Positions 18,669 through 30,692 of a stretch of DNA of 64,000 bases are shown here, piece by piece. The stretch lies in NCBI GenBank assembly GCA_039967435.1, contig JBDVRS010000006.1, forward strand, positions 507,882-571,881, in the 5' to 3' direction. Source of the stretch: Marinomonas sp. (lineage in GTDB: Bacteria; Pseudomonadota; Alphaproteobacteria; Sphingomonadales; Sphingomonadaceae). Position numbers and translations under genes: made by a program. The number at the start of each line of letters is the position of its first letter. Position 1 is the stretch's first letter. Under the pieces are notes generated by a model. It saw only the letters and a list, made by a program, of their open reading frames with translations, had not been told where the DNA came from and did no database searches.

Positions 18669-19916
18669 TTGCTTTATCACGCCCACGAAATGCAAAAAGC
18701 ATGGCTGTCGCACGCCAGCTCTTTGGCCTCAATCGGCGCAGAAATGCTGACCAATCCGCTTAATCCTTTGGGGTATACCGGGCTTGGCCCAATGGCGGCA
18801 TCTGCGCTCGAAGTCTTCGCCCATGCCACGGCTGTTTATGGCAAGCCGGCCTTTGGGATTGAAGTGATTGAAACGGGCGGCAAAAGCTACCCTGTGATCG
18901 AATCCACCGTCGTCAATAAAGCGTTTGGCGATTTGAAGCGTTTCCGCCTCGAGGGCCTCGACACTGAAGGCGGCACAGACCGCCCGAAATTGCTCATCGC
19001 AGCGCCGATGAGCGGGCATTACGCGACCCTGCTGCGCGGCACGGTCGAACGCATGCTGCAATCTTGCGAGGTCTACATCACCGATTGGGCCGATGCGAAG
19101 ACGGTTCCAGTCAGCGAGGGCCATTTCGATCTAGATGATTACATCGATTATCTCATCGAATTCCTCGACCATATCCGCGCCAGTCAAAATGGTGAGCGCC
19201 CGCATATGATGGCCGTGTGCCAGCCTTCTGTGCCTGCCTTTGCTGCCACCGCTCTGATGAACGCGCAAAAGCATCCCGCACGCCCGCAAACCCTCACTAT
19301 GATGGGCGGGCCGATTGATACGCGCGAGAGCCCGACTTCGGTCAATGATATGGCGATGAAGCGCCCGATTGAATGGTTCCAGAACACCGTCATTGCGACC
19401 GTGCCGATGCAGCACCGCGGGGCAGGCCGCGAGGTCTATCCCGGCTTTATGCAGCTCGCCAGCTTCATGAGCATGAACCTCGGCAGCCACATGACCAGCC
19501 ATTATGAAATGTTCAAACATTTGAACGCGGGCGATGATGATAGCGCGCAAGCAACCAAGGATTTCTACGACGAATATCGCAGCGTGTGCGATATGACCGC
19601 CGAATTTTACCTGCAAACGGTGGAAGAGGTGTTCCAAACCCACTCCATCCCCAACGGCGAATTTCGTCATAAGGGCGAGCTGGTGGATTTGAACGCGATC
19701 AAAGACACCGCATTGCTGGCCATCGAAGGCGAGCGCGATGATATCTCAGGGCTCGGCCAAACCAAAGCTGCGCTGAAATTGGCGGGCAAATTGGCTGAGA
19801 AGAAAAAGCGCTATTACATGGCCGAGGGTGCGGGGCATTACGGCATTTTCAACGGCAGCCGCTGGCGGGGCAAAGTTGCGCCAGTGGTTGAGGAATTTAT
19901 CGCGCAACACGGATAG
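18669..19916 (+). CDS. phaZ: Intracellular polyhydroxyalkanoate depolymerase
   Basis: APMSGHYATLLRGTV, VYITDW, AVCQPSVP, MGGPID, EGERDDISG and GHYGIFNG. Start is probably TTG 18669, after GAGGA. Confidence 0.92.
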   Translation: MLYHAHEMQKAWLSHASSLASIGAEMLTNPLNPLGYTGLGPMAASALEVFAHATAVYGKPAFGIEVIETGGKSYPVIESTVVNKAFGDLKRFRLEGLDTEGGTDRPKLLIAAPMSGHYATLLRGTVERMLQSCEVYITDWADAKTVPVSEGHFDLDDYIDYLIEFLDHIRASQNGERPHMMAVCQPSVPAFAATALMNAQKHPARPQTLTMMGGPIDTRESPTSVNDMAMKRPIEWFQNTVIATVPMQHRGAGREVYPGFMQLASFMSMNLGSHMTSHYEMFKHLNAGDDDSAQATKDFYDEYRSVCDMTAEFYLQTVEEVFQTHSIPNGEFRHKGELVDLNAIKDTALLAIEGERDDISGLGQTKAALKLAGKLAEKKKRYYMAEGAGHYGIFNGSRWRGKVAPVVEEFIAQHG

Positions 19917-19940
19917 ACGCATGGGTAAGTGGACGCTGAC
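19884..19940 (+). repeat. 57-bp imperfect direct repeat, copy 1 (phaZ 3' end, stop, and start of next gene)
   Basis: 49/57 identical to 20704-20760 by hand alignment. Confidence 0.88.
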
Positions 19941-20736
19941 AGAAACGGTCTCCACACAGGCCGGAACGGTGGCCGCAGGACGGGCCGGCGATGGCCCGCC
20001 ATTGGTTCTTGCGCATGGCTGGCCGTGGTCCTCTTTTTCGTGGCACCGCGTCATTCCAGCACTTGCCGAACGCTACAGCCTCTATTGGTACGACATGCCC
20101 GGCTATGGCCGTTCGGATCAGCAGCAGGCGCGCACATCCTTGGACGTGCAAGGCGCAGTTTTTGCCGAAATGCTAGAGCATTGGGGGCTGTCAAAGCCGG
20201 GGGTTCTCGCCCATGATTTTGGCGGAGCGACGACGTTGCGCGCGCATTTGCTGCATGGCTGCGAATATGAACATCTCACCTTGCTGAATGTGGTGGCGAT
20301 CAGCCCATGGGGATCGGATTTCTTCGATCATGTCGGCAAGCATGTTGCCGCCTTTGAAGGCCTGCCCCCGCATATTCACCGCGCTATTGTTGACGCCTAT
20401 ATTGGCGGCGCATTCGCAGCTCCGATCGATGAGAATGACAGCAAATGCCTGGCCGAGCCATGGCTATCAGCAGAGGGCCAGCGCAGTTTCTATCAGCAAT
20501 TTGCGCAGGCCGATGAAGCCTACACAGATGAGTTTGAAGACCTGCTGAGCGCAGTCCGCTGCCCTGTCAAAATACTGTGGGGCGAGGATGACCCGTGGAT
20601 CCCGCTGGCACGCGGCAAGCGCCTGCATGATTTGATCCCGGGTTCGACATTCAAGGCTTTACCGAATGCTGGCCATATGCCGCAATTGGAGGTTCCGGAG
20701 TTGGTGGTTGAGGAATTCATCGCCCAAAACGGGTAG
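19921..20736 (+). CDS. Alpha/beta-fold hydrolase
   Basis: LVLAHGWPWSS, YDMPGYGRS, AHDFGG (Asp at the nucleophile elbow), ILWGEDDPWIP and AGHMPQLE. Confidence 0.88.
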   Translation: MGKWTLTETVSTQAGTVAAGRAGDGPPLVLAHGWPWSSFSWHRVIPALAERYSLYWYDMPGYGRSDQQQARTSLDVQGAVFAEMLEHWGLSKPGVLAHDFGGATTLRAHLLHGCEYEHLTLLNVVAISPWGSDFFDHVGKHVAAFEGLPPHIHRAIVDAYIGGAFAAPIDENDSKCLAEPWLSAEGQRSFYQQFAQADEAYTDEFEDLLSAVRCPVKILWGEDDPWIPLARGKRLHDLIPGSTFKALPNAGHMPQLEVPELVVEEFIAQNG

Positions 20737-20760
20737 ACGCATGGGTGAGCAGACGCTGGC
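20704..20760 (+). repeat. 57-bp imperfect direct repeat, copy 2 (hydrolase 3' end, stop, and a 7-codon ORF start)
   Basis: 49/57 identical to 19884-19940, 820 bp downstream. Confidence 0.88.
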
Positions 20761-20877
20761 CTAAGCAGGCCAAACGCACCAAAAGCAGACATTCTGCTAA
20801 CGACCCAATTGCGGACCTAGACTGAGAGTTTGGCAAATTGATCTCTTGCCATTGCACTGCTGGTTCGAAAGCAGGCC

Positions 20878-20892
20878 ATAACTATAGGCTAT
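20878..20892 (+). promoter_or_regulatory. LysR-type box upstream of the D-amino acid dehydrogenase
   Basis: ATAAC-TATAG-GCTAT, a T-N11-A core with near-dyad arms; similar to 29542-29556. Confidence 0.5.
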
Positions 20893-20948
20893 GTTGAACG
20901 GCAGAGTTTGCCCTCGTAGTTGCCAAACATATCTCACACGCTTTTCAC

Positions 20949-22166
20949 ATGGCGCGCGCTAAGAATGTTATTGTGGTTGGAGCTGGTATTGTTGGTGCCG
21001 CTAGCGCCTTTGCATTGGGCAAAGCAGGGTGGAAAGTTCGGATCATTGAGGAAGCAAAGGGGCCTGGTTTAGGTGCTTCTTTCGGCAATGGTCGCCAGCT
21101 CAGTTACAGCTATACAAATGCCCTTGCGAGCCCAGCGATATTGCGCGAATTACCCAGACTAGCTTGTGGCAAAGACGATGCCTTTCGCATGGCGCTTCCT
21201 TTTACATTTTCGAGCATGATTTGGCTGACGCGATTCTTGCGTAATTGTGCCGCTCACCGATCTACTCACAACACTCTATCGGCTCTTGCTCTGGCGGAGA
21301 AATCACGTTGTGAAATGGAGTCTCTGCTTACCCAATTTCCTATCGATTTCGAGCACAAGAGAGCAGGGAAATTGACTGTTTTTCAGACAGACAAAGCGTT
21401 CAGGGTCGCTCAAAAATTGATGCAGACAAAGGTCTCTGCAGGATCAAATCAAAAACCGCTCACCGCTGAGGAGGCGATCGAAGTCGAGCCCGCACTTGCC
21501 CAATATGCGAAGCTGGCTGGAGCAATTTATGCACCCGGCGACAGCACCGGCAATTGCTCACTGTTCGCCGAAAGTTTGATCGACTTGGCGTGCGAGAAAT
21601 TTGGCGCTGAGTTTCATGGCGGGGTCCGCGCAAGCTCGATTGAAGATTACGGCAAGACAGCGGGCCTCGTCTGCGATGATGGAGCCGTGTATGAAGCGGA
21701 TCAATTGGTGGTTTGTGCAGGCCATTATTCACATCGCTTGCTTGAGCCATTGGGCTACCGGCTTCCGGTGGTAGCGATGAAAGGCTATTCCTTTACAGCC
21801 CCAAAATCGGCGCTCGCACCGAAAGTCTCGGTTACCGATAGCTCCAGAAGAATTGTGCTGACCGATTTAGGGGACCGTCTTTTGGTCGCAGGCGCTGCCG
21901 ATTTGGGCGACGATAGATCCGGATACTCAATGACGCGGATGGGCAGCGTCCTAAATGCTGCCAGAACTGCCTTTCCAGATGCCGCAGACTACAGCTGTGC
22001 GGGGGAATTTTGGGCAGGTCATCGGCCGCTCACACCCAACAGTCTGCCAGTTACAAAGCGTTTGTCGCATTCGGTTGCAGTGAATACCGGTCACGGCATG
22101 CTGGGTTGGACATTGGCGATGGGATCGGCTGCGGTGCTTACAGAGGTACTAAAAGATACGCTCTAA
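20949..22166 (+). CDS. FAD-dependent D-amino acid dehydrogenase (DadA family)
   Basis: VVGAGIVGA dinucleotide fold, GASFGNG, KGYSFT, WAGHRPLTP and NTGHGMLGWTLAMGSA. Confidence 0.85.
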   Translation: MARAKNVIVVGAGIVGAASAFALGKAGWKVRIIEEAKGPGLGASFGNGRQLSYSYTNALASPAILRELPRLACGKDDAFRMALPFTFSSMIWLTRFLRNCAAHRSTHNTLSALALAEKSRCEMESLLTQFPIDFEHKRAGKLTVFQTDKAFRVAQKLMQTKVSAGSNQKPLTAEEAIEVEPALAQYAKLAGAIYAPGDSTGNCSLFAESLIDLACEKFGAEFHGGVRASSIEDYGKTAGLVCDDGAVYEADQLVVCAGHYSHRLLEPLGYRLPVVAMKGYSFTAPKSALAPKVSVTDSSRRIVLTDLGDRLLVAGAADLGDDRSGYSMTRMGSVLNAARTAFPDAADYSCAGEFWAGHRPLTPNSLPVTKRLSHSVAVNTGHGMLGWTLAMGSAAVLTEVLKDTL

Positions 22167-22172
22167 TATCGA

Positions 22173-23408
22173 TCATACGTCATCGTCAGAGATATATTCC
22201 TCAACATCAATCTCACCCGCCATACGGCCAACAGCAACGGCAACGGTCGCATCGCCTGTGACATTGGTCATGGTCCGCATCATATCCATGATGTGATTGA
22301 TTCCGGCGACAAAGGCGATGGTTTCAAGCGGCACGCCAATGGAGGTGAGCACCAAGCTCATCATGATCAGTCCAGATCCCGGAATGCCCGCAGCGCCAAC
22401 AGAGCCCAAAGTCGCGGTAAGCGCGATCAAGAGGTAAGAGGTTAGCGTCAGGTCGATGCCGTAAAGCTGCGCCCCGAATATCGCCACCAACCCAAGATAC
22501 ATGGCTGTGCCGTTCATATTGATTGTCGCACCCAGCGCGACAACAAAACTTGAAACAGAGCGCGAGACGCCAAGGTTGCGTTGCACACATCGCAAGGTGA
22601 CAGGCAAAGCGGCATTGGAGGACGCGGTTGAGAACGCGACCACTTGGGCATCCAATATCCCGCGATAAAAGTCGACCACAGGCAGTTTTGCAATTGTCTT
22701 GAGGATCAGTGGATAGACAAGCAGAATGATGATTAGGCACCCAGCGTAATTTAAACCCACCATCGTCGCCAAGGGGACCAAGGCTGCAAAACCAAATGTG
22801 CCCATGACCCACGCCATTAGAGCGAAGACACCGAAGGGCGTTAGCTCCATTACGATCATGGTCATTTTCTGCATCACAGCAGCGCCTGCATCGACGAATT
22901 TTATGATCGGTTCAGCTTCTTTGCCAGCCATCAGCAAGGAAATGCCGAACAGGACTGCAAAGATAATCAGTGGCAGTATTTGCCCCTCTGCCATGGTCAT
23001 GACAGGATTTTCCGGAACCAATGCAAGTAGCCTGTCGGTCCATGACAAATTGGCAGGCGGCGGAATGCTTGCCCCATCGGGCAGCGTCACGTTTAACCCT
23101 ACACCAGGTTCAAAAACCGTCCCCATTGTTAGGCCCAGCGAGATCGAGACCAGCGCTGTGAAGAGAAAAAGCATCAACGCCTTGCCGCCAACATTCCCAA
23201 GCTTTTTCAAATCGCCCAATGCGGCGATCCCGGAGACGAGCGAAAAGAATATGAGAGGAACGATCAGCATTTTGATCGAGCGGATAAATAGATCGCCAAT
23301 CCACTTTATGCTCTCCGCTTTTTCGCCGAATAGATAACCGGCAATTATGCCCAGCACTAACGCTGCGATTACCCGCTTCCACAAGGGAATTGCGAACCAG
23401 CTTTTCAT
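22173..23408 (-). CDS. Dicarboxylate/amino acid:cation symporter (DAACS, GltP/DctA family)
   Basis: FSTASSNAALP, GATINMNGTA, GAAGIPG and DMMRTMTNVTGD. Start moved to ATG 23408, after AAGGA. Confidence 0.93.
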   Translation of the reverse strand: MKSWFAIPLWKRVIAALVLGIIAGYLFGEKAESIKWIGDLFIRSIKMLIVPLIFFSLVSGIAALGDLKKLGNVGGKALMLFLFTALVSISLGLTMGTVFEPGVGLNVTLPDGASIPPPANLSWTDRLLALVPENPVMTMAEGQILPLIIFAVLFGISLLMAGKEAEPIIKFVDAGAAVMQKMTMIVMELTPFGVFALMAWVMGTFGFAALVPLATMVGLNYAGCLIIILLVYPLILKTIAKLPVVDFYRGILDAQVVAFSTASSNAALPVTLRCVQRNLGVSRSVSSFVVALGATINMNGTAMYLGLVAIFGAQLYGIDLTLTSYLLIALTATLGSVGAAGIPGSGLIMMSLVLTSIGVPLETIAFVAGINHIMDMMRTMTNVTGDATVAVAVGRMAGEIDVEEYISDDDV

Positions 23409-23419
23409 CTCAGCATCCT

Positions 23420-25084
23420 TCAATCAGGTTTAGTTACGGTTGGAGGTTTGCTCATCATTGCGCAGTCAGCATGGGCCGATCGTCCCGCTCTCAACAAAGG
23501 TTGGCCGGCCAATTCAGAGCTATATTGCCCTTCTGTGATTGCCAGCTTGCCATTTACGATGACAAAAACAGCGCCAGAAGACAGCTCTTTGGGCTGCGCA
23601 TAAGTCGCATTGGGCCGAAAAGTTCTCGGATCGAACACGGCCACATCTGCGGCCATACCGGCGGCCAATGCGCCGCGATCTTTCAAGCCCAAAATTTGAG
23701 CCGGTAGCGCCGTACTGCGTCTGATGAACTGGGCCATTGATAGCAATTTTTCATCCACTACCAAATCCCGATAGGCCTTGGGGAAGCTGGCATATTTGCG
23801 CGGATGTCCGGTGCTACCATCTGAACCTGTTGCGACCCAAGGCTGAACAGCCAATGCATTGATGTCCTGTGTATTCATGACAAAGGAGGCCACACGCATA
23901 TCTCCTTGCTGCAGCAATCCAATCGCCGCTTCGACAGGACCCATTCCTTGTGCTTGGGAATAATCCGATAAGGTCTGGCCTGTTTTTGCTTTGAAAGCTC
24001 CCAAGCTGCCGGTGAAGAGCAATCTCTCAGCCCCGCCGCGGCGCTTTAGATTGGCCTCCATCTCTTCAGCAATTTTTGCTCTGGTTACTGGCTCTTTTAA
24101 GCGAAGGCGTAGGCCCTCAAGGCCGCCATCCAGCGCCCAACGCGGCACAATCGCATTGCTGATACGCGTGCCGGATGCTTCCCAAGGATATTGATCAGCG
24201 GTGACAGATTGGCCGGTCGCTCTCGCCGCGGAAATCATGTCGATAATTCGCTTGCTTCGGCCCCAAACGCTGGGGCCTAAAGCCTTAATATGGGCAATAT
24301 GCACCGGTATTTGTGCGCGTTTGCCAATCGCTAGAGCCTCTGCAACTGACCTCTCAAGGCCTATAGAATAGTCGCTTTCATCGCGCATATGCGTATCATA
24401 ATAGCCGCCATGCTCGCCCGCTACAGCAGCAAGCGCCGCGACTTCGTCAGTTTTTGCAAAGTTCTGGGGAGCATAATAAAGTCCAGCTGAAAAACCGGCC
24501 GCCCCTTCGCACATTGCGCGCTCCAATTTGGCTTTCATCAACTCCAATTCAGCTGTTTGCGGAGAGCGGTTTTGTTTGCCGAGTACACTTTCGCGCAAAG
24601 GGCCAAAGCCAGCAAGATACACTGCATTGGTGCCAATACCCCTTGCTCGCGCAGTTTGGGCCTGTGCCGCGATATCACTGCCGCCAAAGCCATCATTCCC
24701 AACCACCACAGTTGTGACCCCTTGGAAAAGATAAGGTAGGTTTGCGCGCCTTTTGCGGTCTTGGGAGACGAGATCTTTGTCAGCATGCGTGTGCGGATCG
24801 ATGAAACCAGGGGCAACAATTAGATCGGCGGCATCCAAGGTTTGTTTGGCAGCGGCTTCCGAATGCGCTTCACCCACAAACACGATCTTATTCTCGGCAA
24901 TTCCAATGTCGCCGATCCGCCCCTGCGCACCCAATCCATCATAGATGAGCCCTCCTTTGATAAGCAGATCAAGTTTAGCCTCTTGGGGCACTTCGATAGG
25001 CTCTGGTAACGCGGCGCATGAAGTCAAAAAAAGGCCTGCTGTCAGGCTGGTAAGAACGTGAGTCTTTAACTTCCAACTCATCAT
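23420..25084 (-). CDS. N-acyl-D-amino acid deacylase-like amidohydrolase, lipoprotein
   Basis: APGFIDPHTH, THMRDE, HIAHIK, TGSDG, HPRKYASFP and GMAADVAVFD; lipobox LTSC; GNDG where GNCG is expected. Confidence 0.85.
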   Translation of the reverse strand: MMSWKLKTHVLTSLTAGLFLTSCAALPEPIEVPQEAKLDLLIKGGLIYDGLGAQGRIGDIGIAENKIVFVGEAHSEAAAKQTLDAADLIVAPGFIDPHTHADKDLVSQDRKRRANLPYLFQGVTTVVVGNDGFGGSDIAAQAQTARARGIGTNAVYLAGFGPLRESVLGKQNRSPQTAELELMKAKLERAMCEGAAGFSAGLYYAPQNFAKTDEVAALAAVAGEHGGYYDTHMRDESDYSIGLERSVAEALAIGKRAQIPVHIAHIKALGPSVWGRSKRIIDMISAARATGQSVTADQYPWEASGTRISNAIVPRWALDGGLEGLRLRLKEPVTRAKIAEEMEANLKRRGGAERLLFTGSLGAFKAKTGQTLSDYSQAQGMGPVEAAIGLLQQGDMRVASFVMNTQDINALAVQPWVATGSDGSTGHPRKYASFPKAYRDLVVDEKLLSMAQFIRRSTALPAQILGLKDRGALAAGMAADVAVFDPRTFRPNATYAQPKELSSGAVFVIVNGKLAITEGQYSSELAGQPLLRAGRSAHADCAMMSKPPTVTKPD

Positions 25085-26292
25085 TTCTCAGGAGTTTTCA
25101 GCAAGGTTTCCATCACCGCCATCGCGGATTGTTTGCCGATCCGGCCAATCAGTTTTCTATCGGTTTCGTCCCCAATCTCGAAGGTCACGCCGGGCACGCC
25201 ATATGTGTCGAAGACATGGGCTTTGGAAACGGGTCTTCCGACAGTATGGCGAGCATCGCGCACCACTTCATAATCTGTCATCCGTTCTTGATAACGGGCA
25301 AGCCAATCGCGCGTAAATAACGGCGGGTCAGTCGGAAGCTCATCTGGGATAGAATAAAATATATCGCGCTGGGTCGAATGGAAATCCAACATCAGACGCA
25401 AGTTTTGATTGGGGGCACTTTCAACCCTCTCCAAAACGCCCTGCATCAGCCTCGTCTCTGGCTGTGTAAATGGTCCCCAATCACGGTTGAGATCAATCCC
25501 GCCAGTATTGTGGCGCCAATGGCCTTTCACCACACCATCAGGGTTGAGCAATGGCACCGCGATGACTTCGAACCGATCCCGAAAACGTTTGGCAAGCGGG
25601 TCATCCCCCAGAAGGGTTTCGACAAACGGGAACATTGCCAAAGCCCCGGTGACTTCTGGTGGATGCTGCCGTCCCACCAAAACCAACTGTTCGCGCGCAG
25701 CCTTATTGCCAAATCGAATGATTTCAATTGGGCGCCCTTCAGCAGAGCGGCCAAGCAAAGAGCGCCTTATGCTGCGTTCCGCCTCCAAACCATCAAGCCA
25801 GCTATCATATGTTGCAGGCACGACAATCTCTTGGGCAGAGACGAAAATTGGGTCGGTGCCAGCAGTCAAAGTGAGCCGCGCCATTTTCTTTCCGGCGAAT
25901 TCGGACAGCTCGACATGGCTCTCGCTTAATCGTGTCCAGACTTTGCCATCTGTGCTGACTTTGGGCCAATAGCGATGCCCGCACTCTGTATAATTCAGAT
26001 CGATTTTGACCTGCTGCTTCATCCCGGCTTGCACTCGAAACGCATACCAAGCGCTGCAATTGATCGGAGGGGCATCCTCGGGCGAGAGCACGATTTTGAC
26101 ATTGCCGGATTGACCGACTGAACAAGAGGCTAGGGCCCCGGCAGGAAAGTCGGTGTCGATCGCAACTATGCCGTTGCTACAACGCGCATTCTCTACATTG
26201 AGCGGCATTGGTTGCGCAGGCCTTGTCGGCGCAGTCATGCAACTTGAAAGCATGACCGCGCCGCTCAAAGCAAATATCAGGCGGCGAAACAT
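25081..26292 (-). CDS. M14 zinc carboxypeptidase (cytosolic-carboxypeptidase/Nna1-like), lipoprotein
   Basis: RQHPPE (HxxE), NPDG, DLNRDW, DFHST, and an N-terminal WYAFRV domain; lipobox LSSC. Confidence 0.87.
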   Translation of the reverse strand: MFRRLIFALSGAVMLSSCMTAPTRPAQPMPLNVENARCSNGIVAIDTDFPAGALASCSVGQSGNVKIVLSPEDAPPINCSAWYAFRVQAGMKQQVKIDLNYTECGHRYWPKVSTDGKVWTRLSESHVELSEFAGKKMARLTLTAGTDPIFVSAQEIVVPATYDSWLDGLEAERSIRRSLLGRSAEGRPIEIIRFGNKAAREQLVLVGRQHPPEVTGALAMFPFVETLLGDDPLAKRFRDRFEVIAVPLLNPDGVVKGHWRHNTGGIDLNRDWGPFTQPETRLMQGVLERVESAPNQNLRLMLDFHSTQRDIFYSIPDELPTDPPLFTRDWLARYQERMTDYEVVRDARHTVGRPVSKAHVFDTYGVPGVTFEIGDETDRKLIGRIGKQSAMAVMETLLKTPEK

Positions 26293-26352
26293 TCGGGTGT
26301 CTCCTTTTGCTGAAACAATGGTGAATGGCCGCCAGACTGCGGATTTATCAGA

Positions 26353-29300
26353 TCAGAAGTCCTTCCGCAGCGATACTGTAAATTGGCGTCCGCGAGCAGA
26401 ATGAAGGTTGCTGAAGAAACCGAAGCTCTGATCCGCGATCGGTGGCTGCTTGTTGAAAATATTATTGAAGCCGACCCGCAAGCGGGTGCCGTCAAGGCCC
26501 GTGTCATTTTCAATTTTGTAGCTAATCGCAGCGTTCATCGTGAACCAATCATCGACTTGGAACAGATCACCAGTGTCGTCTTGCACAAGGCTGGTATCAG
26601 ACACTTTACCGACATAACGGCCAAACAAACTCACCCGAACAGGCCCGCTGTCCCAGCGCACAGAACCACTGAAACGCCATTTGGGACGACCATTCAACTG
26701 GCGCACCTGCCCGGTGTTAGCAATGCTAATGCCTGGCAAGGTTCCGTCGTCGACAGCATCAAGCAAGGTCTGGCCATCTGCACCAGGGCTTTGGAAGAAT
26801 GAATCCAGATAGGCTGCATTCACTTTGAGGTTGAAATCACCAAGGCCAAAATCAGGCACTTTGTAGAACACACCAAAGTCCCAACCCTTTGATACACGTG
26901 TATCCAGGTTCAGATATGGATCGAGCACACGAATAATATCGCCTGCAGCCTCTAAGCCGGTGCCAGCGAACAAGTCGATCTGATCTTGATCGGGTGCAGC
27001 ACGCTCAACATTGGGATTGGTGCCGCCATTCAGACGCTGAACAAGGTCTAGTGCGATTTGGTTGGAGTCTCCGAACACACCTACAATGCCCTCTTGTTTG
27101 ACGCGCCAATAATCAGCAGTCAGAGTGAGGCCAGGAATAAAGCCCGGCTCAAGGACTAGACCAAGATTGACGCTTTCAGTGTCCTCTGGTTGCAGTTCGT
27201 TTGTACCCGTCCGCAAACTGACGGTTCCTGAACCTGAGCAGTCATCAAAACTGGCAATCTCGGCCTTCGCAATTTGTGCTGCGCATTGCACAAAATCATC
27301 GCGAGTGTTCGACCGTGTTGTTCCCAGATCATTGACCTGGATTAGGTTAGGCGCACGGAAGCCTTGCGACCATGCCCCGCGCAGCAGGATTCCATCGGTG
27401 ACAGTCCATGCCGCTGCAGCGCGCGGCACAATCGCCGTTTCCTTAATATCGCTGAAGCGCTCCAACCGGCCAGCGAGCTGAACGGTCAATTCTTCCATCA
27501 ATGGTATGCCCATGTCAGCTGACACAAGCGGTATGAAGGTTTCAGCGAAGACTGAATATACCTCGCGATTGCCGCTAGTGTCGGGTGATGGGCTGGAGCC
27601 CATCACATCGCTGCCAAAGAAGTTTCCATTGAACGCGTTGGTGAAGGTGGTTGTGCCATCCAAGCGTGGATCGCGATCATCTTCGAATGTCTCGCGCCGG
27701 AATTCCACCCCGGTTGCGAGGCCCACGTTACCGCCAGGCAATGTGAATAGATCAGACTTGGAAAGCTTGAAATCTGCCAATGCAAGGGTCGTCTCGCCCT
27801 TACGGAATACATCAATCACAAATGTATCAATCACAGACTGCGGGTTTGCGGTGCAATCGCCGCTATCCACATTGTCAACGCAGGCGCCATTAAACGGATT
27901 GTAGGCCGTGCTATCTGTGCGGTTAATTGCAGCTTGGAACAGTGAATTTGAGATCCGATTGCTCGTGAAATCATTCGTGTTGGCTTGCGAATACAGCAGA
28001 CCGGCATCGAAATCCCACCCAAAGAAGTCACCGCGCAGACCGCCGACAAGACGGAATACATCTTTCTTCACACGAACGTTGCGCGGCCCAGCGTCGATCG
28101 GGCGATAGTCTTCGATAATAATCGTAGCGCCATCAGGGCCAATGCCGTCAATACCACTGGTTAAGCGGTTCGGATTAGGAGAACCGTCAGCCAAGGTTGC
28201 GGCCCCGAGCGGGTTCCAAAACGCAGTTGGCAGAACAGGAATCGGTGCTGCTGTGAGGTTTGAGCGCTGTTCAAGATTACGGTTGGAATCCGAACGATAA
28301 TATGATCCCTCTGCATAGAATTCGACAGCCGGACTTAGCTCATAGCGAAACAGACCCGATACGCTGTAGCGATCCTTTTCTGAGAAAAGGTCACGATCGC
28401 CTTCGATATTGTAACGCTGGGCGCGCGTCTGTGTCGTGCCGTTATCTGCACAAATGCCGTTGCCAAGGTCAAGAAAACGGCTGTCAGAAATCGCATTGAC
28501 GTCTTCGAATGCTCCGCATGGGCGAACGAAAAAGTCATCGTCGTTGAGATCAGTTGACCCACGGGATGCTTGAATATCGAACTCACCCCACGGGCTGTCA
28601 TTCGAACTGTTGTCAATCTGGGTATCGCCTTCAAACGCGGTACCCTCAACGAACCGGCGGCGATCACTGTCAGAGGCGTAATCGCGGATGGAGGACGGCG
28701 CGCCATTCTCGTGGAAGTAATAACCGTAGAGCGAGAAATTGCCGCGCCCTTCGCCAAAATCAAAGCCATATCCGGCACGCAGCGAAGTGCTGTAGAGGCT
28801 GGTTCCCGTCGATGCGCGGTAATTGCCTTGGACATAACCTCCGTCCAAATCACCTCGAAGAATGGTATTGACCACGCCAGCAACAGCGTCTGCTCCATAA
28901 ACCGCTGAGGCGCCATCACGCAGAACCTCAACACGGCGCACACTCCCGGGCAGAATTTGGTTGGTATCAGGCGACACGACCGGGACCAAAAGCTCAGTTT
29001 GGAAGCCAGGGTTAAGCACCATTCGGCGTCCGTTGACCAAAAGCAATGTATTGCCAGTTCCGATGCCTCGAAGGTTAATCGATGCGATATCGCCGCGCGC
29101 ACCATTGACACCGCCAACGGTGCTTTGGTCGTTAAAAGCTACAGAGCCTGCTTGCGGGATCGCCCGAAACAGTTCGTCGCCCGATGCCGGATCAATAACA
29201 TCAACATCTGCTTCTCCCACGACAGTGATTGGAAGGATATCGTTGATCTGTGCGCCTTGAATGCGCGTACCAGTAACCACAATGGCAGTTTCTTGCGCAT

Positions 29301-29424
29301 CAGCATTGGCTGCAGCAGCCTCGCCCTCGCCAGCACTATCTTGGGCGATTGCGCCTTGCGAAGACAAACACCCAATCGCTGTTCCGGATAGCAAAATGGC
29401 GACCTTCTTGCCGAGTTTCTTCAT
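26353..29424 (-). CDS. TonB-dependent receptor
   Basis: Signal peptide, TonB box IVVTGTRI, plug motifs LLVNGRR and RVEVLRDGASAVYGADAVAGVVN, C-terminal Phe. Start moved to ATG 29424. Confidence 0.95.
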   Translation of the reverse strand: MKKLGKKVAILLSGTAIGCLSSQGAIAQDSAGEGEAAAANADAQETAIVVTGTRIQGAQINDILPITVVGEADVDVIDPASGDELFRAIPQAGSVAFNDQSTVGGVNGARGDIASINLRGIGTGNTLLLVNGRRMVLNPGFQTELLVPVVSPDTNQILPGSVRRVEVLRDGASAVYGADAVAGVVNTILRGDLDGGYVQGNYRASTGTSLYSTSLRAGYGFDFGEGRGNFSLYGYYFHENGAPSSIRDYASDSDRRRFVEGTAFEGDTQIDNSSNDSPWGEFDIQASRGSTDLNDDDFFVRPCGAFEDVNAISDSRFLDLGNGICADNGTTQTRAQRYNIEGDRDLFSEKDRYSVSGLFRYELSPAVEFYAEGSYYRSDSNRNLEQRSNLTAAPIPVLPTAFWNPLGAATLADGSPNPNRLTSGIDGIGPDGATIIIEDYRPIDAGPRNVRVKKDVFRLVGGLRGDFFGWDFDAGLLYSQANTNDFTSNRISNSLFQAAINRTDSTAYNPFNGACVDNVDSGDCTANPQSVIDTFVIDVFRKGETTLALADFKLSKSDLFTLPGGNVGLATGVEFRRETFEDDRDPRLDGTTTFTNAFNGNFFGSDVMGSSPSPDTSGNREVYSVFAETFIPLVSADMGIPLMEELTVQLAGRLERFSDIKETAIVPRAAAAWTVTDGILLRGAWSQGFRAPNLIQVNDLGTTRSNTRDDFVQCAAQIAKAEIASFDDCSGSGTVSLRTGTNELQPEDTESVNLGLVLEPGFIPGLTLTADYWRVKQEGIVGVFGDSNQIALDLVQRLNGGTNPNVERAAPDQDQIDLFAGTGLEAAGDIIRVLDPYLNLDTRVSKGWDFGVFYKVPDFGLGDFNLKVNAAYLDSFFQSPGADGQTLLDAVDDGTLPGISIANTGQVRQLNGRPKWRFSGSVRWDSGPVRVSLFGRYVGKVSDTSLVQDDTGDLFQVDDWFTMNAAISYKIENDTGLDGTRLRVGFNNIFNKQPPIADQSFGFFSNLHSARGRQFTVSLRKDF

Positions 29425-29541
29425 GAATTTCCCTCCCTGTTTTGTTGCCCTAGCATCGCTGGGACAATATCTATGCGCGTTCTGGTGCCGCAACTGGAGC
29501 AGCAACGCAAACTCTTCGCTCAATCAAAGCGGGGCTTAGGT

Positions 29542-29556
29542 ATAAATGGAGGTTAT
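29542..29556 (-). promoter_or_regulatory. LysR-type box upstream of the TBDR operon
   Basis: Minus strand reads ATAAC-CTCCA-TTTAT, T-N11-A, with the same ATAAC arm as 20878-20892. Confidence 0.5.
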
Positions 29557-29563
29557 GGATTTG

Positions 29564-30481
29564 CTAAGTTCTGGACGATTGCATGGCGCCAATGCCGCGC
29601 TGCAAATCTTTCACCGCCCGCTCTAGCGCTGCAGTAGCTTCATCAATTTTTTGCCCGAATGGGTGGTCAACCAATCGGCTCGCAAAAATTGGAAACGAAG
29701 GAAAATCTTTCAGGAGATGTCTTTGGAGTCCGGCACCTAAGTAGGAATAAGCTGTATATTGGTCCGTAATTGCAATGCCCAATTGCTTGCGCGCGAGCGA
29801 CAATGCAACGTGGTAAGTGTGGGCCGTAATCACTGTCTTAGGCACGATATCACGGCGCAAAAGCTCTTGCTCAACTATCCCGCCCAAAGGGCCGCTTTCT
29901 TGAATGCCGATAAAGTCTTCATTTGCGAGCAATCCGGCAACATCTTGCTCATTCCCCTCATGCAAGGCGTGCGCTGAGACCATTGCAAATGCGCCTGTGC
30001 CGACTTGTTTGGTCAGAATTCGTGAGTCATGGATCGGCTCAAAACCAATGGAGAGATCGCTTTGTTTTTCGAGCAATACCCTCGCCAAATCAGCAGAATG
30101 GAGCGTTGTCAGTTCAAAACTAAGACTGTCATCTGTGACGCGCATCCGCGAAATTAATTCTGGCCCTACCGATAGGCTAAGCGAGGGAAGGACACTCAAT
30201 CGCATGTGCCCGCCGCGGCGCTGTCGAATGTTATCCAGAGAACGGTTGAAGGATGCTAGCCGCCCATAAAGATCGTCTGCTTCTCCAAACAATTCATCGG
30301 CAGCAGGCGTTGGTTTTAACCTGCCTTTGCTGCGCTGAAAAAGCTCTATTCCAAGCTGATCCTCGGTATGGCGCAGCACCTTGCTTACCGAAGGTTGCGA
30401 GACATTCAAATCGCGCGCCGCCCCGCTAATCGAGCCTGCGCGATAGACGTGATAAAAGATCTCTAACTGCCTGATTCGCAT
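29564..30481 (-). CDS. LysR family transcriptional regulator
   Basis: N-terminal HTH (GSISGAARDLNVSQPSVSK...LFQR...PTPAA) plus a substrate-binding domain. Confidence 0.93.
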   Translation of the reverse strand: MRIRQLEIFYHVYRAGSISGAARDLNVSQPSVSKVLRHTEDQLGIELFQRSKGRLKPTPAADELFGEADDLYGRLASFNRSLDNIRQRRGGHMRLSVLPSLSLSVGPELISRMRVTDDSLSFELTTLHSADLARVLLEKQSDLSIGFEPIHDSRILTKQVGTGAFAMVSAHALHEGNEQDVAGLLANEDFIGIQESGPLGGIVEQELLRRDIVPKTVITAHTYHVALSLARKQLGIAITDQYTAYSYLGAGLQRHLLKDFPSFPIFASRLVDHPFGQKIDEATAALERAVKDLQRGIGAMQSSRT

Positions 30482-30692
30482 TCGGCACTTTCATCCACAT
30501 GTGCAGGCTTTGGCAATGGCAAAGAGTGAAGTCAGGACGACAGATTTGATCGAGGGCAGGCAAAATCATTCGGAGTATTCAGGCGGGCGGTCAATATCTG
30601 AAACGGCCAACCCATGTTGCATTAAGTCCGCTTTCCACCCCAATTTCAAACATTAGATTAAATCGTCTACCCGACCAGAGCAGACAAAATGC

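Follow-up and report, generated by a model that had tools for sequence, protein, structure and literature searches.

We describe a six-gene island in a marine Erythrobacteraceae genome that is best explained as a LysR-controlled accessory island scavenging acidic peptides or polyamides with D-residues, a reading to which we assign a probability of about 0.5. In this scheme, the TonB-dependent receptor (TBDR) would carry an anionic oligomer across the outer membrane, and two lipoprotein hydrolases, complementary in stereochemistry, would shorten it in the periplasm, starting at the C-terminus. The CCP-type M14 peptidase would free L-acidic residues (Asp/Glu), and the D-aminoacylase-like amidohydrolase would free the C-terminal D-residue, treating the remaining chain as an acyl group. 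The GltP-like DAACS symporter would then take up the liberated acidic amino acids, and the DadA-like dehydrogenase would convert the D-enantiomer into a 2-oxo acid (oxaloacetate or 2-oxoglutarate), with the LysR protein probably binding ATAAC-N7-TAT boxes before the TBDR operon and the DadA-like gene. We infer every substrate and reaction here from sequence. Among substrate classes, oligo- or poly-aspartate that is Asp-rich and partly racemised or beta-linked appears most likely; peptidoglycan peptides and gamma-poly-glutamate (gamma-PGA) come after it. The scheme builds on observations of gene content, export signals, catalytic residues, synteny, a shared box and the insertion of the island.

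Features of the island and their positions in the window
Feature	Position	Strand	Remarks
Limits of compositionally atypical island	20737..30692	.	Between PhaZ/abhydrolase and DUF4126; GC minimum of the window
Putative LysR-type (T-N11-A) box CCATAACTATAGGCTAT	20876..20892	+	Centre ~65 nt upstream of DadA-like start codon
DadA-like FAD-dependent D-amino acid dehydrogenase paralog	20949-22166	+	No signal peptide; convergent with operon; Pfam DAO 5.7e-57
DAACS (SDF) symporter, Glu/Asp type	22173-23423	-	Start TTG 23423 or ATG 23408; Pfam SDF 5.4e-129
D-aminoacylase-like amidohydrolase without bridging cysteine	23420-25084	-	Lipobox LTSC, Cys23; Amidohydro_3
CCP-type (M14D) metallocarboxypeptidase	25081-26292	-	Lipobox LSSC, Cys18; Pfam M14, CCP N-domain, AstE_AspA_cat
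TonB-dependent receptor, ~1020 aa	26353..29424	-	Pfam Plug and TBDR barrel; ORF 26353-29523
Putative LysR-type box CCATAACCTCCATTTAT	29542..29558	-	Between lysR stop and TBDR start
LysR-family regulator	29564-30481	-	Same direction as operon; HTH_1 2.8e-20, LysR_substrate 2.2e-18

A first-pass annotation of the window (the whole stretch of 64,000 nucleotides analysed here) had described an AT-rich block with five co-oriented genes and a convergent DadA-like one. All six open reading frames are present as described: LysR, TBDR, M14 peptidase, amidohydrolase and DAACS on the minus strand, and the DadA-like gene running towards them, with 6 nt between its stop and that of the symporter. The short junctions it noted are also there, namely a 4-nt overlap between the M14 and amidohydrolase genes and an 11-nt gap between the amidohydrolase and an ATG-started DAACS (a 4-nt overlap with the TTG start), and its family assignments are upheld by Pfam, NCBIfam and PDB matches. 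The AT-richness is genuine, yet modest: GC content is 52.5% in the block versus 56.5% in the remaining window, the lowest value among all 9.9-kb segments of the window is at 20751, and GC3 is 0.50-0.61 in the six island genes versus 0.60-0.71 in the flanking genes.

The island was acquired horizontally and occupies a variable spot within a backbone conserved across Erythrobacteraceae. Of 80 retrieved loci of the Erythrobacteraceae type, the majority keep the order ABC-PhaZ-(variable)-DUF4126-(CMD)-thiolase; PhaZ and DUF4126 are direct neighbours in at least 10, and none of the 80 carries the module at this site. Elsewhere, the gene set is widespread among marine bacteria. Among 55 M14-centred related loci with enough flank, the TBDR adjoins the M14 ortholog in 50, and the amidohydrolase, DadA-like and LysR genes are found in 36, 32 and 31, respectively. 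The five-gene core is present in 31 of the 55 (27 of these 31 with a DAACS or DASS transporter), and all six genes occur together in 17. The regulator is always accompanied by both the amidohydrolase and the DadA-like gene (31/31 LysR loci), so that relatives of D-aminoacylase and of DadA travel with it. Gene order differs, the Maricaulaceae/Hyphomonadaceae and Woeseiaceae/Lysobacterales loci (Alpha- versus Gammaproteobacteria) being rearranged. Since the gene set is kept across many genomes, the objection that the first-pass annotation had raised against itself, that these genes might not co-occur elsewhere, does not hold. Ten related TBDR-M14 pairs lie under FecR/ECF sigma control without D-amino acid genes, and thus the TBDR-M14 core need not handle D-residues. 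Some related loci also contain a second large M14 and an M28. A secreted PGA_cap/CapA protein is found in 11 related loci and weakly matches MslH, a C-terminal peptide epimerase (PMC10406935); pgsA controls the D-content of PGA (PMC6029982).

Our data support a discrete and probably co-regulated uptake and catabolism module. A putative LysR-type box is conserved ahead of the TBDR operon and the DadA-like gene: CCATAAC-N7-TAT occurs exactly twice in the window, once in each of these promoter regions. In 23-24 of 62-65 related loci (37%), none of them FecR-type, the shorter ATAAC-N7-TAT precedes the TBDR, and it precedes DadA-like genes in 6/45 (13%), against a background of 1.3% of random 360-bp windows; no copy was seen ahead of PahZ1, lyase or DASS genes in related loci. 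The TBDR itself, whose likely true start is the ATG at 29424 preceded by the ribosome-binding site AGGGAGGG, has a signal peptide and the TonB box ETAIVVTG, and Pfam finds no STN signalling domain in it. Because SusD is absent and the TBDR is not of the SusC type, the island is not PUL-like in the strict sense, contrary to the earlier proposal.

The M14 peptidase is not of the MpaA type, one of the two M14 groups named in the earlier proposal. Its AF2 model (pLDDT 85) gives full-length Foldseek matches to 4b6z, 3k2k, 3l2n, 4a37 and human CCP5 (TM ~0.7), and MpaA is absent among the top 50 structural matches; together with the CCP N-domain, this speaks against an MpaA-like identity. Residues H210, E213, R260, N269, R270, H305, E372 and S356-K357 are invariant among 40 homologs. 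The Ser-Lys pair, 15-16 residues ahead of the catalytic Glu, resembles the S329-K330 S1' pocket of the B. cenocepacia CCP, which has been interpreted as acidic-residue-specific and judged suited to Glu (PMC3940198). Bacterial CCPs have been inactive or nearly so towards the substrates offered to them (PMC3940198). Its lipoprotein signal places the enzyme in the periplasm, not the cytosol, unlike the named CCPs. Lipoboxes are present in both hydrolases of the window and nearly all their orthologs have signal peptides, in line with the periplasmic placement suggested before; being exported, both would act after outer-membrane import.

The amidohydrolase has D-aminoacylase (1m7j, 3e-58) and N-acyl-D-Glu deacylase (3gip, 1e-54) as its closest solved relatives. 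Its assignment as a D-aminoacylase stands in part: fold, metal ligands (H98/H100, H232, H265, D422) and the alpha-carboxylate binders Y299 and R429 are retained, but where 1m7j has the metal-bridging Cys96, the island protein has Asp131 (GNDG), a residue kept in 47 orthologs. Since this defining cysteine is missing, D-specific deacylation is an activity that we infer. The insertion domain is ~37 residues longer, and the alignment gave no position for the D-Glu determinant Arg295. The missing cysteine is a defining feature of subtype-V D-aminoacylases; for relatives without it, a review raises the possibility of different substrates (PMC12149444). The sister family, OngB, removes the acetyl group of an amino sugar acid (PMC12017989).

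The DadA-like protein scores 314.7 bits (E 1e-93) against the NCBIfam DadA subfamily, below the cutoff of 383; this is its best NCBIfam match, far above ThiO (1e-28). Its PDB matches are glycine oxidases, and it is 32% identical to E. coli DadA over the full length (E 3e-60). As for the symporter, the Glu/Asp-type carrier proposed earlier agrees with an alignment to E. coli GltP (36% identity) and DctA (31%), in which the GltP-type D-M-x-R-T motif (IMDMMRT) is present and the S-E-A-R-A of DctA is absent. DAACS carriers generally take D-Asp better than D-Glu.

The lead towards aspartate comes from the poly(aspartic acid) hydrolase PahZ1; no other enzyme that we found linked to the pan-locus has been characterised by experiment. 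A secreted hydrolase in 12/80 related loci is ~50% identical to PahZ1 (6ve6, E 6e-64) and keeps its triad and R246. In the reverse search from PahZ1 homologs, 18/61 loci had an M14, amidohydrolase or DadA-like gene within 10 kb, in both Alpha- and Gammaproteobacteria; for ~70% of the homologs the gene neighbourhood is a different one. The PahZ1 enzyme resides in the periplasm, where it hydrolyses beta-Asp bonds with a preference for L-Asp-D-Asp (PMC13017698, PMC4456602). The window itself contains no PahZ1, CapA, DASS, lyase or DUF4886 gene.

Other substrates have to be weighed against this one. Salvage of peptidoglycan stem peptides, in which the TBDR would import free L-Ala-gamma-D-Glu-mDAP(-D-Ala), is unlikely, and heads the alternatives in probability. 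The amidohydrolase would remove D-Ala, the M14 enzyme would cut gamma-D-Glu-mDAP like MpaA, itself an M14 enzyme, and the amidohydrolase would split L-Ala-D-Glu, with D-Glu and D-Ala being oxidised. Related families offer precedents for every step (MpaA, and Bb3285 with the 3gip match), two enzymes would suffice for full C-terminal degradation, and a Glu/Asp-type symporter and a marine habitat are compatible; Bb3285 reportedly hydrolyses N-acyl-D-Glu and L-Xaa-D-Glu dipeptides, in work attributed to Cummings in 2009. However, the M14 is CCP-type, the regulator is just 24% identical to the DAP-sensing E. coli LysR, amidase, muramidase, NagZ, AmpG and DAP-handling genes are absent from the loci inspected, and the linked accessory genes indicate polyanionic polyamides instead. 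Nothing specific to stem peptides, the substrate named first in the first-pass annotation, was found, the sole characterised linked enzyme being PahZ1; what survives of that interpretation is the co-regulated module with its exported hydrolases and Glu/Asp symporter. The use of D/L gamma-PGA ranks third among the alternatives and is improbable. Here the M14 would remove gamma-linked L-Glu like CCP5, which is among its best structural matches, and the amidohydrolase would take C-terminal D-Glu for oxidation as by Pseudomonas DguA. The S1' pair suited to Glu, the close relationship to N-acyl-D-Glu deacylase and the CapA protein of related loci speak for it; the lack of CapA in the window, the absence of both gamma-glutamyl transferase and PghP-type hydrolase from the inspected loci, the unplaced Arg295 and the D-Asp preference of DAACS carriers speak against it.

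Second in rank, and likewise doubtful, is a module unrelated to D-amino acids, whose amidohydrolase would act on an amino sugar acid, an N-acyl/N-carbamoyl compound or an isoaspartyl peptide, and whose DAO-family enzyme would act on glycine, sarcosine or an opine-like amine. The replaced Cys96, the alternative activities raised for Cys-less members, the ability of the OngB fold to switch to a sugar acid, and the subthreshold DadA score with glycine oxidase matches would fit. Against this, the oxidoreductase matches DadA best, the Tyr and Arg binding a D-configured alpha-carboxylate are retained, a carboxypeptidase and a Glu/Asp-type or dicarboxylate carrier always accompany the set, and PahZ1 prefers a D-residue-containing substrate. 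Least probable, and very unlikely, is the piracy of xenosiderophores or metallophores, with the TBDR importing a peptidic chelator with D-residues, the hydrolases freeing the metal and the fragments being recycled. Siderophores are classical TBDR cargo, metal chelation and D-residues are features of polyaspartate and of many marine acyl-peptide siderophores, and FecR/ECF sigma pairs precede ten related TBDR-M14 pairs; the window, however, has a LysR gene and no FecIR pair, TBDR STN domain or iron-handling gene, and a catabolic dehydrogenase with an amino acid symporter suits nutrition better.

The first-pass annotation knew of no characterised locus of such composition, and we found none in the literature either. 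The nearest report, by Tang et al. in 2012, concerns gammaproteobacterium NOR5-3, where a TBDT adjoins a D-aminoacylase gene and N-acyl-D-amino acid derivatives were guessed as substrate (PMC3400609); a Halioglobus locus among our related loci belongs to the same type. That one-line guess from genome context came without the M14, DadA-like, LysR and symporter genes, conservation statistics, the box or PahZ1. The PahZ1/PahZ2 system of Sphingomonas sp. KT-1 (also Pedobacter sp. KP-2) likewise consists of sphingomonad periplasmic hydrolases, which release free Asp from an acidic polyamide whose units are D/L and whose links are alpha/beta. In contrast, the window has neither PahZ gene, and exo-cleavage would fall to the CCP-type M14 and the D-aminoacylase-like enzyme instead of PahZ2; a TBDR, LysR, symporter and D-amino acid dehydrogenase lie outside the described system, whose published account does not discuss natural substrate or genomic context.

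The island M14 shares with the bacterial M14D CCPs (PaCCP 4a37, BcCCP 4b6z, 3k2k, 3l2n) the two-domain fold, the zinc and catalytic residues and the Ser-Lys at the predicted S1' (PMC3940198), but is only 16-20% identical to them and carries a lipoprotein signal, and its TBDR neighbour provides a physiological setting, which is missing for the solved CCPs. The amidohydrolase agrees with subtype-V D-aminoacylases and N-acyl-D-Glu/Asp deacylases (1m7j, 3gip; EC 3.5.1.81-83) in fold, HxH, two His, catalytic Asp and carboxylate-binding Tyr and Arg; it differs in the conserved Asp for the bridging Cys, the longer insertion domain, lipoprotein export and its proposed role, which would be to free C-terminal D-residues from peptides and not to deacetylate. 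Murein tripeptide catabolism in E. coli (MpaA, YcjG, PepD) also has an M14 step before an L-Xaa-D-Glu unit is cleaved, but it is cytoplasmic, relies on an epimerase and not on a D-specific hydrolase, and has an M14 of the MpaA type, not the CCP type. Finally, dguRABC (D-Glu/D-Gln) and dadRAX (D-Ala) of P. aeruginosa pair a dedicated regulator (LysR-type in dgu) with a DadA-family dehydrogenase serving a single class of D-amino acid, and the island has a comparable pair. It differs from them in lacking RidA (DguB), a periplasmic binding protein (DguC) and a racemase; with its additional outer-membrane import and pair of periplasmic hydrolases, it would start from bound, not free, D-amino acids.

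The six genes that the first-pass annotation had read as a system for the uptake and catabolism of D-amino-acid-containing peptides recur together in other genomes. In this wholly computational analysis, the M14 protein was searched against a single genome of each species, which gave 231 relatives, of which the best 80 were analysed; the synteny counts come from tblastn and are based on 55 loci whose M14 ortholog is flanked by at least 6 kb on its upstream side and at least 5.5 kb on its downstream side. A TonB-dependent receptor (TBDR) stands beside M14 in 50 of these, the amidohydrolase in 36, the DadA-like gene in 32 and LysR in 31. The earlier proposal had been staked on the genes co-occurring elsewhere, and they do: the five-gene core (LysR, TBDR, M14, amidohydrolase and DadA-like) is found in 31/55 loci, the core plus a DAACS or DASS carrier in 27, and all six genes in 17. 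Across the related loci, LysR, the amidohydrolase and the DadA-like gene are gained and lost as a group, and loci lacking them keep only the TBDR-M14 pair, ten (among the 55) with a FecR/ECF sigma pair in place of LysR. The gene order varies by lineage: LysR-TBDR-M14-amidohydrolase-(DAACS) with a convergent DadA-like gene in Sphingomonadales, LysR-TBDR-DadA-M14-amidohydrolase-DAACS in Maricaulaceae and Hyphomonadaceae, and a TBDR divergent from LysR-DadA-M14-amidohydrolase in Woeseiaceae and Lysobacterales. Such variation speaks for selection acting on the gene set, not for descent of a single operon. ORF clusters in these loci rest on simple longest-ORF calls and include a few opposite-strand artefacts (clusters c23-c25).

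TBDR-M14 pairs without the amidohydrolase or DadA-like gene lie behind an ECF sigma factor and a FecR anti-sigma factor in related loci L029, L030, L031, L034, L050, L054 and L057, and further ECF/FecR-controlled pairs of this kind occur in L064, L067, L069, L071, L073 and L079. In such pairs, one and the same receptor-peptidase core is under different regulatory wiring.

In the window, all six ORFs were recovered where they had been placed, every family call was upheld by Pfam, NCBIfam and PDB sequence searches, and the junctions are as described: a 4-nt overlap between M14 and the amidohydrolase and, between the amidohydrolase and DAACS, a 4-nt overlap if the TTG start is used or an 11-nt gap if translation begins at the ATG.

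Features of the island and its borders (window coordinates)
Feature	Position	Strand	Remark
LysR	29564-30481	-	ORF call and domain search
LysR-type box, copy 1	29542-29558	-	between lysR stop and TBDR start
TBDR ORF	26353-29523	-	likely start ATG 29424 behind AGGGAGGG ribosome-binding site
M14	25081-26292	-	ORF call and domain search
Amidohydrolase	23420-25084	-	ORF call and domain search
DAACS	22173-23423	-	TTG start, or ATG at 23408
DadA-like	20949-22166	+	convergent with the operon
LysR-type box, copy 2	20876-20892	+	~65 nt 5' of DadA-like start
Alpha/beta hydrolase	19828-20736		gene next after PhaZ
39-nt direct repeat	19900-19938 and 20720-20758		3' ends of PhaZ and the next gene
Inverted GGGTAGACG	~30663-30672		in terminator-like hairpin

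The block is an inserted island. Its flanks are housekeeping genes (ABC exporter, PHB depolymerase PhaZ, alpha/beta hydrolase, DUF4126, CMD, thiolase and glutamate synthase), and among 80 loci centred on PhaZ orthologs, fetched from Erythrobacteraceae and relatives, most of those with enough downstream sequence share the backbone ABC(-), PhaZ(+), a variable stretch, DUF4126(-), (CMD) and thiolase(-). PhaZ directly adjoins DUF4126 in at least ten of these genomes, and the six genes occupy the PhaZ-DUF4126 site in none of the 80 loci. Genomes that do carry the module have it at another position; the module of Erythrobacter sp. HA6-11, for example, maps to 2.76 Mb and PhaZ to 0.94 Mb. Besides this strain (L006), culturable carriers include Qipengyuania aquimaris JCM 12189 (L003) and Erythrobacter crassostreae WH158 (L043). 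The nearest PhaZ match (96%) belongs to an Altererythrobacter MAG, which assigns the window to a member of the Erythrobacteraceae. Composition agrees with the AT-rich block seen earlier, GC being 52.5% against 56.5% in the rest of the window; the island is the lowest of all 9.9-kb windows (minimum at 20751), and GC3 is 0.50-0.61 in the six genes versus 0.60-0.71 in their neighbours. No tRNA (by tRNA scan), integrase, IS element or long terminal repeat marks the island ends, an Rfam search returned no RNA match, and a promoter and terminator scan performed no better than on shuffled sequence.

Close to one border there is a direct repeat of 39 nt, 85% identical between its copies. As it brackets the alpha/beta hydrolase gene, this gene may itself be an insertion at a variable spot. 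A short motif, GGGTAGACG, is found again, inverted, beside the other end of the island.

The M14 protein combines an N-terminal beta-sandwich domain (N-domain; PF18027, 4.7e-6) with the M14 catalytic domain, the two-domain layout of the cytosolic carboxypeptidases (CCPs, M14D). Its AlphaFold model (pLDDT 85) matches 4b6z, 3k2k, 3l2n, 4a37 and human CCP5 over the full length in Foldseek (E 1e-20 to 1e-23, TM ~0.7), and classical carboxypeptidases match only its catalytic domain. The protein is not of the MpaA type (single-domain gamma-D-Glu-mDAP amidases), one of the M14 groups named in the first-pass annotation, as the N-domain is present and MpaA is absent from the top 50 Foldseek matches. 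H210, E213, H305, R260, N269, R270 and E372 do not vary across 40 homologs; with the N-terminal half aligned to CCPs, they correspond to the zinc ligands HxxE...H and to the equivalents of Arg127, Asn144, Arg145 and Glu270. Unlike what the name of the family says, this CCP relative carries a lipoprotein signal peptide (MFRRLIFALSGAVMLSSC; lipobox LSSC, Cys18), and its orthologs have lipoprotein or ordinary signal peptides. In the public protein collection, it appears as a 375-aa product starting at Met29 (P0001), on 91 contigs. That start removes the signal peptide kept in full-length orthologs, so the automatic name 'M14-type cytosolic carboxypeptidase' is misleading for the subfamily.

Bacterial CCPs are represented by four crystal structures, and their function and substrates are stated to be unknown (PMC3940198). 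In the Burkholderia cenocepacia enzyme BcCCP (4b6z), S329-K330 form part of a shallow S1' pocket to which specificity for acidic residues has been ascribed (PMC3940198). In our protein, S356-K357 do not vary either; they precede E372 by 16 and 15 residues, versus 15 and 14 in BcCCP, and from this similar spacing the two pairs may correspond.

The amidohydrolase is also a predicted lipoprotein (lipobox LTSC, Cys23). In sequence, the solved structures nearest to it are the D-aminoacylase 1m7j (3e-58) and the N-acyl-D-Glu deacylase Bb3285 (3gip, 1e-54), followed among the PDB matches by the amino-sugar-acid deacetylase OngB (8e-42). Bb3285 reportedly also has dipeptidase activity (Cummings 2009). 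H98/H100, H232, H265 and D422 are conserved and align with H67/H69, H220, H250 and D366 of 1m7j, and Y299 (QYPW) and R429 (HPRKY), conserved in at least 95%, are the counterparts of the PYP-motif Tyr and the Arg that in subtype V hold the alpha-carboxylate of the D-amino acid (PMC12149444). A metal-bridging Cys is the defining feature of the subtype-V D-aminoacylases, EC 3.5.1.81/82/83 (PMC12149444, PMC12017989). The bridging Cys96 of 1m7j (GNCG) is replaced here by Asp131 (GNDG), an Asp conserved in 47 orthologs. Thus, the enzyme shares the HxH, the two His, the catalytic Asp and the Tyr/Arg pair of subtype V but lacks its Cys, which bears on how the enzyme class is defined. For the Arg295/Leu298 specificity position of the D-aminoacylases, whose Arg295 lies in the insertion domain and pairs with the D-Glu side chain in Bb3285, the alignment breaks at 307/290, and the insertion domain of our protein is ~37 residues longer; carrying the HMMER alignment across the break and scoring ortholog conservation, the ungapped counterpart I312 is variable, and nearby R307 and R315 are conserved.

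In the carrier, the motif IMDMMRT, aligned with E. coli GltP (ILDMART) and DctA (FMSEARA), is of the GltP type (D-M-x-R-T), with a GltP equivalog score of 259 against a cutoff of 638. From the GltPh literature, we take the Asp and Arg of D-x-x-R-T in helix 8 to bind the amino group and the side-chain carboxylate. From the GltP-type motif, the predicted cargo is an amino acid whose side chain is acidic, and not a simple dicarboxylate. The NMDGT motif, conserved in DAACS carriers, reads NMNGT (INMNGT) here and in the closest orthologs; the Hyphomonadaceae-type ortholog of locus L061 keeps NMDGT. In GltPh, the Asp of this motif is a cation-site residue, so ion coupling in the NMNGT-type carriers may be different. 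The DadA-like protein scores 314.7 bits against NF001933, below the cutoff of 383 yet its best match by far (E 1e-93); it shares 32% identity with E. coli DadA, has the FAD GxGxxG motif and lacks a signal peptide.

The regulator has HTH_1 and LysR_substrate domains (Pfam). A LysR-type T-N11-A box, CCATAAC-N7-TAT, occurs exactly twice in the 64 kb, 5' of the TBDR and DadA-like genes, and its consensus is nearly the palindrome ATAACC-N3-GGTTAT. Since the motif was defined from these two sites, the orthologous loci provide the independent test. There, ATAAC-N7-TAT lies upstream of the TBDR in 23 of 62 loci, of the DadA-like gene in 6 of 45 and of LysR in 4 of 34, against 1.3% of random 360-bp windows from the same loci; it is absent from FecR-type loci and upstream of the M14, amidohydrolase, PahZ1, lyase and DASS genes of the related loci. 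The two copies and this enrichment predict a LysR regulon made of the TBDR operon and the DadA-like gene, and the accessory PahZ1, lyase and DASS genes are not placed in it because they lack the box. A hint of DAP sensing, from the E. coli LysR model as the regulator's best NCBIfam match, was dropped since direct identity is only 24%.

Several accessory families absent from the window recur among the best 80 of the 231 related loci. A DASS carrier occurs in 26 loci, in many cases ones that lack DAACS; 14 have a DUF4886 lipoprotein, 14 an adenylosuccinate-lyase-like protein that bears a signal peptide, and 11 a secreted PGA_cap/CapA protein containing a carbohydrate-binding-like domain; occasionally there is a second large M14 or an M28 peptidase. 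Also recurrent is a secreted alpha/beta hydrolase, found in 12/80 related loci and without a match in the window, which is closely related to PahZ1, a poly(aspartic acid) hydrolase of Sphingomonas sp. KT-1 (6ve6; E 6e-64, ~50% identity), and conserves the Ser/Asp/His triad and the R246 equivalent. In a reciprocal, alignment-based PahZ1 scan (a single-protein scan matched only itself), we examined the best 80 of 554 loci. An M14, amidohydrolase or DadA-like gene lay within 10 kb of the PahZ1 homolog in 18 of the 61 loci with at least 15 kb; these 18 belong to Erythrobacteraceae, Woeseiaceae and other Gammaproteobacteria and differ in gene order. PahZ1 and its partner PahZ2 are periplasmic; at the scissile beta bond, the Pedobacter PahZ1 favours L-Asp followed by D-Asp (PMC4456602).

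The CapA-family protein has a weak NCBIfam match to MslH, which epimerises the C-terminal residue of a peptide in a Ca-dependent manner (PMC10406935). When pgsA, the family's founding member, is lost, the D content of Bacillus poly-gamma-glutamate falls from 75% to 5% (PMC6029982). As a group, these accessory genes suggest anionic polyamides of mixed stereochemistry.

Some details of these accessory genes deserve mention in their own right. The CapA-family protein (L032:15376-17463 and 10 others, cluster c11) has a CBM_4_9-like C-terminal domain and adjoins the DadA-like gene in both Alpha- and Gammaproteobacteria. The adenylosuccinate-lyase/fumarase-superfamily protein (L009:13994-15463 and 13 other loci, c8), encoded between the DadA-like and DASS genes, has XcbD, PurB and CMLE as its best NCBIfam matches, all far below cutoff; with its N-terminal signal peptide it appears periplasmic, which is unusual for this superfamily. 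The larger M14 (856-926 aa) lies directly 3' of the M14 or amidohydrolase gene (L036:11458-14238, L075:12807-15377). A PahZ2 identity for the M28 peptidase of L050 was rejected, as it matches no poly(Asp) hydrolase entry.

How might these genes work together? We propose that the TBDR would import an acidic oligomer, which two periplasmic lipoproteins would trim from the C-terminus: the CCP-type M14 would take L-Asp or L-Glu, and the D-aminoacylase-like enzyme a C-terminal D-residue, with the rest of the chain as the acyl group. The GltP-like carrier, or DASS in other genomes, would import the free acidic amino acids, the DadA-like enzyme would convert the D-forms to oxaloacetate or 2-oxoglutarate, and LysR would switch on the operon and the dehydrogenase gene. 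For this general scheme of import, dual C-terminal trimming, symport, D-amino acid oxidation and LysR control, we see even odds. The more specific reading is that the six genes form the heart of a system so far unrecognised but widespread among Alpha- and Gammaproteobacteria of the sea, which would consume acidic polyamides of aged or synthetic origin (D/L poly-Glu, or oligo- or poly-Asp containing D-Asp and beta-links), imported as oligomers by the TBDR, with the CCP-type M14 and the Cys-less D-aminoacylase relative acting in the periplasm as carboxypeptidases of opposite stereospecificity; this we hold tentatively, at a probability of roughly 0.3. Within the general scheme, the association with PahZ1 puts oligo- or poly-Asp containing D-Asp and beta links first as substrate, followed by peptidoglycan stem peptides and gamma-PGA. 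It is tempting to speculate that aged, racemised Asp-rich proteins could be a natural source of poly-Asp.

Two alternatives lie outside the general scheme. D-amino acids might not be the substrates of the Cys-less amidohydrolase and the DAO-family enzyme at all; the replacement of the hallmark Cys by Asp and the sub-cutoff DadA score count for this, the conserved Tyr/Arg pair against it. Alternatively, the FecR-type loci, in which the TBDR-M14 core stands apart from the other genes, suggest that this core may serve metallophore uptake.

D-Asp, D-Glu and D-Ala make up a sizeable share of refractory marine dissolved organic nitrogen and, to our knowledge, the uptake and degradation of bound D-amino acids are poorly known. 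If the acidic-polyamide reading is true, it would give bacterial CCPs a first physiological role, complete the pathway around PahZ1 with the import and the later reactions that it lacks, and provide a route for D-Asp and D-Glu remineralisation in the sea. The conserved, TBDR-linked periplasmic CCP subfamily is a concrete place to seek the substrates of bacterial CCPs. PahZ1 enzymes are studied for poly(aspartate) recycling, and the PahZ1 literature consulted names no natural substrate or outer-membrane route and does not discuss neighbouring genes; the recurrent adjacency suggests both a natural substrate and such a route.

The TBDR has a signal peptide and a TonB box without an STN signalling domain. 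Among known systems, the label 'PUL-like' had to be given up: the receptor scores 27 bits against a cutoff of 368 for the SusC-type TIGR04056, and there is no SusD-like ORF in the locus, which therefore falls outside the Bacteroidota PUL class. The locus also differs from the D-glutamate locus dguRABC, which has DguB (RidA) and the binding protein DguC, in having no RidA or binding-protein ORF. We found no characterised locus of such composition in the literature searched, and the exact gene combination is unmatched save for a one-line mention (PMC3400609). The locus fits best as a variant of TBDR-linked loci for nutrient scavenging, assembled from known families, and it is the variant that is new.
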